A DNA stretch of 64,000 nt from Escherichia coli (GTDB lineage: Bacteria > Pseudomonadota > Gammaproteobacteria > Enterobacterales > Enterobacteriaceae): the NCBI RefSeq assembly GCF_046105845.1, contig NZ_CP151004.1. The stretch is one strand, 5' to 3'. The notes beneath the pieces are model-generated. The model saw only the letters and a program-made list of their open reading frames with translations. It searched no databases and was not told where the DNA came from. Positions 11,465-13,508 of the stretch are shown piece by piece. A program made the translations under genes and the position numbers. How positions within the stretch are numbered: position 1 is the first letter of the stretch; the number at the start of each line of letters is the position of its first letter.

Positions 11465-11808
11465 TGTGTGAGTCAGTGCAGAATCGGATTAGCCCGTTTT
11501 TAGCCATCGGTAGGGTAAAGTTTGATGGAAAATATGGGTTATGTGCCGATGTATCCCACAATGAAATAACCCTCGAGGGAAAGGAATCAGCGCGATGAAC
11601 AAATTCACGGTGTTTTGCTGCTAGGTGTGGTATTTCTCGGCTTTATTATTGTACCGTTCTTGATATGGCCGACGGTGGTTGCGCTGGCTGCTTGTATTAT
11701 TACGCTGAGTTTTCTGGGGAGATACTGTTCTCTATCCCGCTCATGATCAGGCGTATTTCACTTCTGGAATTACAACTTTGGTTATCGGTTGTATATGCGC
11801 TTTGTCCA

Positions 11809-11907
11809 TGCCGGATGCGACGTGAACGTCTTATTGGCCTACAAAATCATGCAAATTCAATACATTGCATAAGCCACGTAGGCCTGATAAGCGTAGCGCA
11901 TCAGGCA
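11809..11907. repeat. REP (repetitive extragenic palindromic) elements, two copies in opposite orientation (BIME-like)
   Basis: gccggatgcgacgtgaacgtcttattggcctac and taggcctgataagcgtagcgcatcaggca match the canonical E. coli REP consensus; located just downstream of the glpD stop. Confidence 0.8.
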
Positions 11908-11969
11908 ATTTTGTATTTGTCATCAGTCTCAGACCAGATCGAAATCTGACCTGACCACCTTACGTTAAA

Positions 11970-13475
11970 TCACGAAGCCAGCGACAACTTCTGCTGCGTA
12001 TACTCCACCAGCCACTGACTCACACGAGATTGTTGATCCGCATTCAGCCACATGCCTTGTTTTGTGCGACGCCACAGGGCATCGTCGGCGCGGCGGACCC
12101 ATTCGTGATCCACCAGGTATTTCAGTTCCGCTTCGTAGAACTCATGACCGAAATCCTCCCCGAGGTCGCTTATCGCCACCGCATTGCAGAGCAGCAGCTC
12201 GCTGTTGCTGCCGTAAGTGCGCGCGTAGTGACGTGCCAGCGATTCGGTCAGGAATGGGTAACGACGGCGCAGACGAGCTGCGTAATCGTCGCGGTCGCCT
12301 TCAATGGCACCACCCGGCAGCACGCTCTCTTTTGTCCATGCCGGGCCAATGCCCTGATAATACGGCGTCAGTTTTTCCAGCGCATGTTCCGCCAGTTTGC
12401 GGTAGGTGGTCAACTTACCGCCGAATACCGACAGCAGCGGCGCTTTGCCGTTTTCATCATGGATATCAAGCGTGTAATCACGAGTAATAGCCTGCGGCGA
12501 GTCGGACTCATCATCACATAGCGGACGCACGCCGGAGTAGGTCCAGACGATATCGTCCCGGCTTAACTGCTTTTTAAAGTGCGTGTTATACACTTTCAGC
12601 AGGTAATTGATTTCACTCTCTTCAATTTTTACTGCTTTTGGATCACCTTTGTATTCCACATCGGTGGTGCCGATGATGGAAAACTCGTCCATCCACGGGA
12701 TCACGAAGACAATACGTTTATCTTCGTTTTGCAGAATGTAGGCCTGCTTTTGTGTATGCACACGCGGCACCACAATATGGCTGCCTTTGATCAGGCGAAT
12801 GCCATAAGGTGAGGGTAGATGCATCCCGTCGTCGAAGAACTGCTTCACCCACGGGCCGGTGGCGTTCACGAGGCCGCGCGCTTGCCAGCTATATTTTTTG
12901 CCGGTATCGATATCTTCTGCTTCCACAATCCACAGGCCGTTTTCGCGGCGAGCAGAAGTGGCACGAGTACGAGTAAGCACTTCACCGCCTTTACGTACCA
13001 CCATCTGGGCGTTGGCGAGCACCAGACGGGCGTCATCTACCCAACAGTCGGAATATTCGAATCCGCGCTTAATTTCCGGTTTTAACACTGAATTTGCGCC
13101 AAAACGCAAACCGGTTGATCCCGGCAGGCTGGTGCGTTTACCCAGATGATCGTACATAAACAGACCAATGCGAATCATCCACGCCGGGCGCAGATGCGGA
13201 CGATGCGGCAGGCGAAAACGCATCGGGAAGGCGATATGCGGGGCCATTTTCAGTAGCACTTCACGTTCAGCCAGCGCCTCGCTGACCAGGCGGAATTCAT
13301 AGTGCTCAAGGTAGCGCAGGCCACCGTGAATGAGTTTTGAACTGGCGGAAGAGGTCGCGCAAGCGAGATCCTGCGCCTCCAGCATCAGCACGGATAAACC
13401 GCGTCCAGCGGCGTCTGCCGCGATACCAGCACCATTGATGCCGCCACCTATCACAATCAGATCTTTGGTTTCCAT
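11970..13475 (-). CDS. glpD: aerobic glycerol-3-phosphate dehydrogenase GlpD
   Basis: ORF contains METKDLIVIGGGINGAGIAADAAGRGLSVLMLEAQDLA (FAD-binding GGG-x-G-x-G); 501 aa from the METKD start. Confidence 0.95.
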   Translation of the reverse strand: METKDLIVIGGGINGAGIAADAAGRGLSVLMLEAQDLACATSSASSKLIHGGLRYLEHYEFRLVSEALAEREVLLKMAPHIAFPMRFRLPHRPHLRPAWMIRIGLFMYDHLGKRTSLPGSTGLRFGANSVLKPEIKRGFEYSDCWVDDARLVLANAQMVVRKGGEVLTRTRATSARRENGLWIVEAEDIDTGKKYSWQARGLVNATGPWVKQFFDDGMHLPSPYGIRLIKGSHIVVPRVHTQKQAYILQNEDKRIVFVIPWMDEFSIIGTTDVEYKGDPKAVKIEESEINYLLKVYNTHFKKQLSRDDIVWTYSGVRPLCDDESDSPQAITRDYTLDIHDENGKAPLLSVFGGKLTTYRKLAEHALEKLTPYYQGIGPAWTKESVLPGGAIEGDRDDYAARLRRRYPFLTESLARHYARTYGSNSELLLCNAVAISDLGEDFGHEFYEAELKYLVDHEWVRRADDALWRRTKQGMWLNADQQSRVSQWLVEYTQQKLSLAS

Positions 13476-13508
13476 GCTGCCCTCATTCACTTTCGTTAAA
13501 GCTCATAA

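Follow-up and report, generated by a model that had tools for sequence, protein, structure and literature searches.

The sequence at positions 11498-11803 of the window (the whole stretch of 64,000 nucleotides of Escherichia coli DNA analyzed here) is almost certainly a non-functional mosaic pseudogene, the leftover of an ancestral PstS1-PstS2-H3 gene cluster. Homology to intact genes, the lesions themselves and the fact that they are fixed among carriers of this locus are all shown below; together they amount to ordinary gene decay, which is already known in so far as RefSeq flags a pseudogene here. The original prediction had drawn attention to short overlapping hydrophobic ORFs within 11580-11770, and these are real: MNKFTVFCC-stop and the frame containing LIWPTVVALAACIITLSFLGRYCSLSRS can both be read in the sequence, between the stop codon of an adhesin gene (11464) and a REP pair (∼11806-11905), beside the glpD stop at 11970. 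Our result on their coding capacity is a negative one: these ORFs merit neither annotation nor follow-up as small proteins, signal peptides or toxins.

Elsewhere in E. coli, for example in O157:H7, the gap between glgP and glpD holds three genes. PstS1 is a membrane-anchored PstS-family protein of 502 amino acids with a hydrophobic N-terminal region and a PBP_like_2 domain, PstS2 is a PstS-family lipoprotein of 330 amino acids, and H3 is a hydrophobic protein of ∼200 amino acids (the family of WP_000981056.1) with several hydrophobic segments. Pfam, NCBIfam and PADLOC assign H3 to no family. Within the reach of our search, full-length homologues were confined to the genus Escherichia (E. coli, E. 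albertii, E. marmotae and others). Intact H3 alleles show dN/dS values of 0.19-0.39 in spite of very high synonymous divergence (dS up to 0.83); the parent behaves as a real gene. Within E. coli, dS between H3 alleles reaches 0.65-0.83 (dN/dS ∼0.2-0.4), an unusually deep divergence for a chromosomal gene. Insertion sequences also break the cluster, with an IS2 inside PstS1 of strain 2017-03-3CC (107-1335 of that locus, L004) and an IS1 in strain 3908; such disruptions add to the evidence that many lineages can do without the cluster.

Composition of the remnant

We mapped the remnant by local pairwise alignments, since a MAFFT alignment of four locus types misaligned the remnants. On the plus strand, DNA alignments and conceptual translation place the last ∼24 codons of PstS1 at 11498-11569. 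This tail carries in-frame stop codons at 11501-11503 and 11516-11518 ahead of the native stop at 11567-11569, and its translation reads F*PSVG*SLMENMGYVPMYPTMK* (asterisks denote stops) compared with FLTPQGQSLVEDVGYVPLYPTMK* in the intact gene. It is followed by the PstS1-PstS2 spacer (11570-11594, plus strand), which is near-identical in three comparison loci (L003, L004 and L005) and retains the ribosome-binding site of PstS2 (AAGGA at 11581-11585).

The next segment, 11595-11626 on the plus strand, matches the first 33 nucleotides of PstS2, that is, its first 11 codons (MNKFTGVLLLG), apart from one 1-nt gap. The gap reflects the loss of a C between 11608 and 11609, and MNKFTGVLLLG thereby becomes MNKFTVFCC-stop. 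The intact PstS2 protein starts with MNKFTGVLLLGTALLAGC; in the window only codons 1-11 of this lipoprotein signal peptide are left, they are frameshifted past codon 5, and the lipobox (L-A-G-C) is deleted. Four nucleotides of ambiguous origin (GTGG, 11627-11630, plus strand) lie between the aligned blocks at the PstS2::H3 deletion joint.

Codons 12-69 of H3 follow at 11631-11803 (plus strand). This piece is 92.5% identical over 173 nt to positions 2501-2674 of the 2017-03-3CC locus, which contains an intact, annotated gene (protein WP_000981056.1, 200 amino acids), and the similarity reaches a megablast E-value of 1e-60. The alignment again contains a single 1-nt gap, corresponding to one G lost from the run at 11716-11719, and the piece is therefore read in two frames, as LLGVVFLGF...SFLG and as EILFSIPLMIRR...YAL. 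If the two missing bases are restored, one continuous frame results: MNKFTGVLLLGVVFLGFIIVPFLIWPTVVALAACIITLSFLGEILFSIPLMIRRISLLELQLWLSVVYAL. Residues 1-11 of this repaired peptide are residues 1-11 of PstS2, and 49 of its 58 residues 13-70 are identical to H3 residues 12-69. The suggestion that the ORFs derive from a broken gene for a membrane protein is right. The parent is not the small gene that had been supposed; it is H3, of ∼200 amino acids, preceded in the fusion by the first 11 codons of the gene for a PstS-family lipoprotein.

The H3 alignment closes with the octamer TGCGCTTT (11796-11803), which also opens the downstream alignment to K-12 and to the REP-proximal spacer of strain NMBU_W05E18 (L003). 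Of a 7-8-bp direct repeat only this copy is left, whereas intact loci keep both, one inside H3 and one ∼40 nt past the H3 stop (at 2667, with GCGCTTT at 3110, in 2017-03-3CC; at 3609 in NMBU_W05E18). One copy in place of two implies that ∼440 bp were lost between the repeats, and this deletion removed H3 codons 70-200 together with ∼40 nt past the stop codon.

Beyond the octamer, the REP pair and its spacer (11804-11969) are collinear with positions 3001-3174 of the K-12 locus, occur in other strains as well and are not part of the dead gene. They are followed by the conserved right flank, glpD (11970-13490, minus strand), an ORF to which the matching RefSeq records give the same name. In the search of complete E. 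coli genomes, the median number of places matched by the REP part was 19 per genome. The Rfam model ES036 (CssrF) matches 11843-11885, on the REP/BIME repeat, with 46.8 bits (gathering score 37.6). Because the same stretch matches ∼19 places per genome, this hit probably reflects the repeat and not a specific sRNA gene.

Coding potential of the short frames

Two single-base losses shift the reading frame twice and so create three overlapping short hydrophobic ORFs. The first, MNKFTVFCC-stop, occupies 11595-11624 on the plus strand (ATG at 11595, TAG at 11622-11624), the second, with LIWPTVVALAACIITLSFLGRYCSLSRS, spans 11615-11746 and reads MLLGVVFLGFIIVPFLIWPTVVALAACIITLSFLGRYCSLSRS, and the third covers 11665-11949, reads ...GEILFSIPLMIRRISLLELQLWLSVVYAL... 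and then enters the REP elements. Their successive frames are 0, 2 and 1 (coordinates modulo 3), as predicted for two single-base deletions. The fragments owe their hydrophobicity to descent from a signal peptide and transmembrane segments and not to chance, as the homology to intact H3 and to the PstS2 start shows; an origin as chance ORFs in REP sequence was considered and rejected.

Could the frames nevertheless encode one or several genuine small hydrophobic proteins, a membrane protein or a type I toxin-like peptide that arose de novo out of the wrecked gene? In favor of this are the strong hydrophobicity of the peptides, the PstS2 ribosome-binding site that is still in place ahead of the ATG at 11595, and a sequence that hardly varies among eight carriers. 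However, the only frame preceded by this ribosome-binding site ends after nine codons, the 43-aa frame starts at a TTG without a Shine-Dalgarno sequence, and the 94-aa frame crosses the REP elements. We detected neither a σ70-like promoter (both strands) nor an intrinsic terminator in 11400-12000, and a collection of 15 billion proteins contains neither the 43-aa nor the 94-aa product. Moreover, the NCBI annotation pipeline PGAP calls the stretch a pseudogene, and the H3 similarity continues from one frame into the next, as decay predicts and unlike what is expected of a new gene. We consider a new protein very improbable. The idea of a toxic peptide in particular found no support: MNKFTVFCC is the frameshifted, lipobox-less start of a lipoprotein signal peptide, and as a type I toxin or small toxic peptide the locus fails on the nine-codon length of its ribosome-binding-site-bearing ORF, on the longer frames without Shine-Dalgarno sequence and on the promoter scan, which found no site on either strand.

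Equally slim are the chances that the PstS2 ribosome-binding site and start codon drive translation of MNKFTVFCC, or that the remnant and the REP pair together serve the fimbrial transcript as a stabilizing or regulatory 3′ UTR. Given read-through from the fimbrial operon upstream, the orphan ribosome-binding site could direct the synthesis of a 9-residue peptide at most. A role as 3′ UTR, if true, would account for the near-invariance of the remnant among its carriers. This near-invariance is most simply read as recent common ancestry, and less so as constraint.

Even less credible is continued production of a full-length protein by two programmed –1 ribosomal frameshifts. Both lesions are indeed single-base losses, one of them in a run of G residues. 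But a slippery heptamer of the type X XXY YYZ is absent at both sites, the 11 N-terminal codons belong to a different gene, and the H3 identity ends at codon 70, at the ∼440-bp deletion, after which REP sequence would be read.

The piece at 11631-11803 is significantly similar to members of the H3 family and takes the position of H3 as the last gene before the convergent glpD, which is the same in L003-L005, L007 and L009-L011. In place of a full-length ORF of about 196-201 codons, it retains only codons 12-69, split by a 1-nt deletion. Truncated and frameshifted, it is a pseudogene of the H3 family and not a functional member. Compared with the nearest H3 allele, the remnant shows a dN/dS of 0.70 over only 58 codons, which hints weakly at relaxed constraint. 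No protein function is to be expected of the remnant. Some gene finders call a 45-aa frame over the PstS1 tail, as "hypothetical" only. An Rfam scan of 10500-13000 returned no family inside 11580-11770 and only the ES036 match described above, and a repeat search yielded weak chance pairs only.

The fimbrial island and the proposed order of events

In the window, glgP ends at 3790 and is followed by a seven-gene chaperone-usher fimbrial operon (4273-11464) and then by glpD on the minus strand. The operon contains genes for a major subunit, a chaperone, an usher, two minor subunits, a second chaperone and an adhesin, and the RefSeq annotation of the carriers names usher, fimbrial proteins and chaperone. 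Its last gene (10313-11464, plus strand) encodes a tip adhesin of 383 amino acids (Pfam Fimbrial PF00419, E-value 3e-19). The adhesin and the second chaperone share 78% and 68% amino acid identity, respectively, with fimbrial proteins encoded at the same site in APEC 16-1068. An auf operon has been reported in the glpD..glgP region of ExPEC (PMC12928451). Based on site, gene content and homology to APEC 16-1068, the island appears to be an auf-like operon. A very AT-rich region of ∼470 bp (3800-4272) separates the glgP stop from the first fimbrial gene, with an inverted repeat just past glgP (GGTAACTGCCGTGTG...CACACGGCA); it presumably comprises the glgP terminator followed by the regulatory region of the island.

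The ORFs do lie at the right edge of this island in the glgP-glpD gap, as had been proposed, but they do not mark its insertion scar. The first ∼25-45 nt past the adhesin stop are common to the APEC 16-1068 allele and not to PstS1; within the island-derived tail at 11465-11497, positions 11465-11487 align with what follows the adhesin stop in the divergent auf allele (L011) and not with PstS1, whose homology starts at ∼11498-11513. The right joint lies at about 11488-11515, inside the 3′ end of PstS1, with a positional uncertainty of ∼15 nt. At the left joint (∼3799), homology to island-free strains stops ∼9 nt past the glgP stop. The scar therefore lies ∼80-100 nt upstream of the lesions in 11580-11770, which are separate events. 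The APEC allele is instructive here: its PstS1 tail reads GYVPMNKMLH* (GYVPMDKTLH* in ST131), and its downstream genes are intact. An island joint next to intact genes argues that the replacement of PstS1 is an older event, distinct from the three lesions to which the ORFs are due.

We propose the following sequence of events. In a first step, an auf-type island would have replaced the glgP-proximal spacer and all of PstS1 except its last ∼24 codons. A deletion of ∼1 kb would then have joined PstS2 codon 11, in frame, to H3 codon ∼12. One C at 11608/11609 and one G from the run at 11716-11719 would have been lost in a third step, and a deletion of ∼440 bp between the two copies of (T)GCGCTTT would finally have taken the last two thirds of H3. 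That the first step preceded the other three is supported by the APEC allele, because it carries the island and yet has intact downstream genes. The order among the later steps we only infer, since no intermediate combining the island with an intact PstS2-H3 of the window allele type was found.

We searched window positions 11440-11990 against 5,426 complete E. coli genomes. The whole stretch, and with it the island, is present in only 227 of them, and every one of these 227 carriers of the adhesin allele spans both the PstS2::H3 joint and the 3′ deletion joint. In a sample of eight carriers from across the ranking, the indels are identical and only four SNPs occur over 11440-11803. Shared joints and identical indels indicate that the decay had run its course before the known carriers diverged from their common ancestor. 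The dead remnant is ∼99% identical among the eight sampled carriers, compared with a more variable adjacent adhesin: over 10700-11640, mostly the C-terminal half of the adhesin gene, the 227 carriers share only 95-98% identity with the window. The operon itself is decaying in some carriers, with a frameshifted adhesin gene in PKF11, and a shortened adhesin and a frameshifted chaperone gene in ST2747.

Comparison with K-12 yzgL and other layouts of the gap

Judged by the annotated records, the glgP-glpD gap is a hotspot of recombination and deletion with at least six layouts. PstS1, PstS2 and H3 are found in O157:H7, CE-O153H30, NMBU_W05E18 and 2017-03-3CC; ST131 has PstS1, a 255-aa hypothetical protein and H3, and O26:H11 has PstS1, a 236-aa and a 255-aa hypothetical protein, and H3. 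K-12 and MLI121 contain the pseudogene yzgL alone. In APEC 16-1068 the fimbrial operon is followed by intact genes for the 236-aa and 255-aa proteins and H3, whereas in the window type it is followed by a PGAP pseudogene. H3 is kept in every layout that is not deleted down to a remnant. The 255-aa protein that replaces PstS2 in ST131 and O26 (2838-3605 in L010) ends with YDASSESPGK*, and PstS2 (1975-2967 in NMBU_W05E18) ends with YDASSESSGQ*; these shared C-termini place a boundary of cassette exchange inside the last ∼10 codons. The 255-aa and 236-aa proteins match no Pfam or PADLOC family, and NCBIfam returned only one weak sub-threshold match (236-aa protein). Knowledge of these layouts is useful for strain typing and pan-genome annotation.

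The leading guess of the original prediction was that the fragments are the small ORF annotated in K-12 between glgP and glpD, yzgL (b3427), broken by insertion of the island. This pseudogene, which RefSeq marks as incomplete and which a literature search recovered in incidental mentions only, occupies the same gap, is also hydrophobic and stems from the same ancestral cluster. Its composition decides against identity. yzgL starts as PstS1 (codons 1 to ∼75) and ends as H3 (its last ∼20 codons): positions 2561-2911 of the K-12 locus (L002) align with the glgP-PstS1 spacer and the first ∼226 nt of PstS1 (816-1166 in L005), and positions 2903-2962 are the last ∼20 codons (∼60 nt) of H3. None of this sequence, neither the glgP-proximal spacer nor the PstS1 start nor the H3 end, is present in the window. 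An alignment to the K-12 glgP-glpD region had been suggested as a check; it is collinear with the window only from 11796 onwards, in the REP region, and thus finds no homology to the yzgL reading frame. As stated, the proposal is refuted, and we give it virtually no probability. What survives of it is the historical connection: yzgL and the window fragments are complementary, non-overlapping leftovers of one ancestral cluster.

The mosaic pseudogene can be set beside several known loci. Intact H3 proteins (WP_000981056.1 and WP_000981061.1, 200 amino acids; WP_061092826.1, 201 amino acids) are annotated as "hypothetical protein" directly upstream of the glpD stop in O157:H7 and other strains; compared with them, the window copy is frameshifted and has lost codons 1-11 and 70-200, with 84% amino acid identity once repaired. 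Like the window remnant, yzgL is a decay product of PstS1-PstS2-H3 at the same locus; unlike it, yzgL keeps the 5′ end of PstS1 and the 3′ end of H3, shares no sequence with it and resides in a strain without the fimbrial island. The reconstruction explains yzgL as a PstS-family gene head attached to an H3 tail.

The window island shares its chromosomal site with the auf island of ExPEC (aufABCDEFG). The operon of APEC 16-1068 matches it in its last two genes and, on the right, is likewise bordered by the last ∼25 codons of PstS1. The reconstruction places the right boundary of the auf-type island within the 3′ end of this PstS-family gene. In comparison with APEC, the window carries a divergent allele of the island, followed by decayed PstS2 and H3 instead of intact genes for the 236-aa and 255-aa hypothetical proteins and H3.

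The closest counterparts are pseudogenes called by PGAP, which describes the stretch in seven carriers as "frameshifted; incomplete; missing C-terminus". J0G23_RS12660 of MEI003 and V9Z38_RS01665 of MS 69-1 are the same sequence at the same position between adhesin gene and glpD, and the window is 99.6% identical to MEI003 over 551 nt. The PGAP annotation covers only the H3-derived part, corresponding to window positions 11603-11817, and leaves the PstS1 tail, the PstS2 head and the deletion joints unrecognized.
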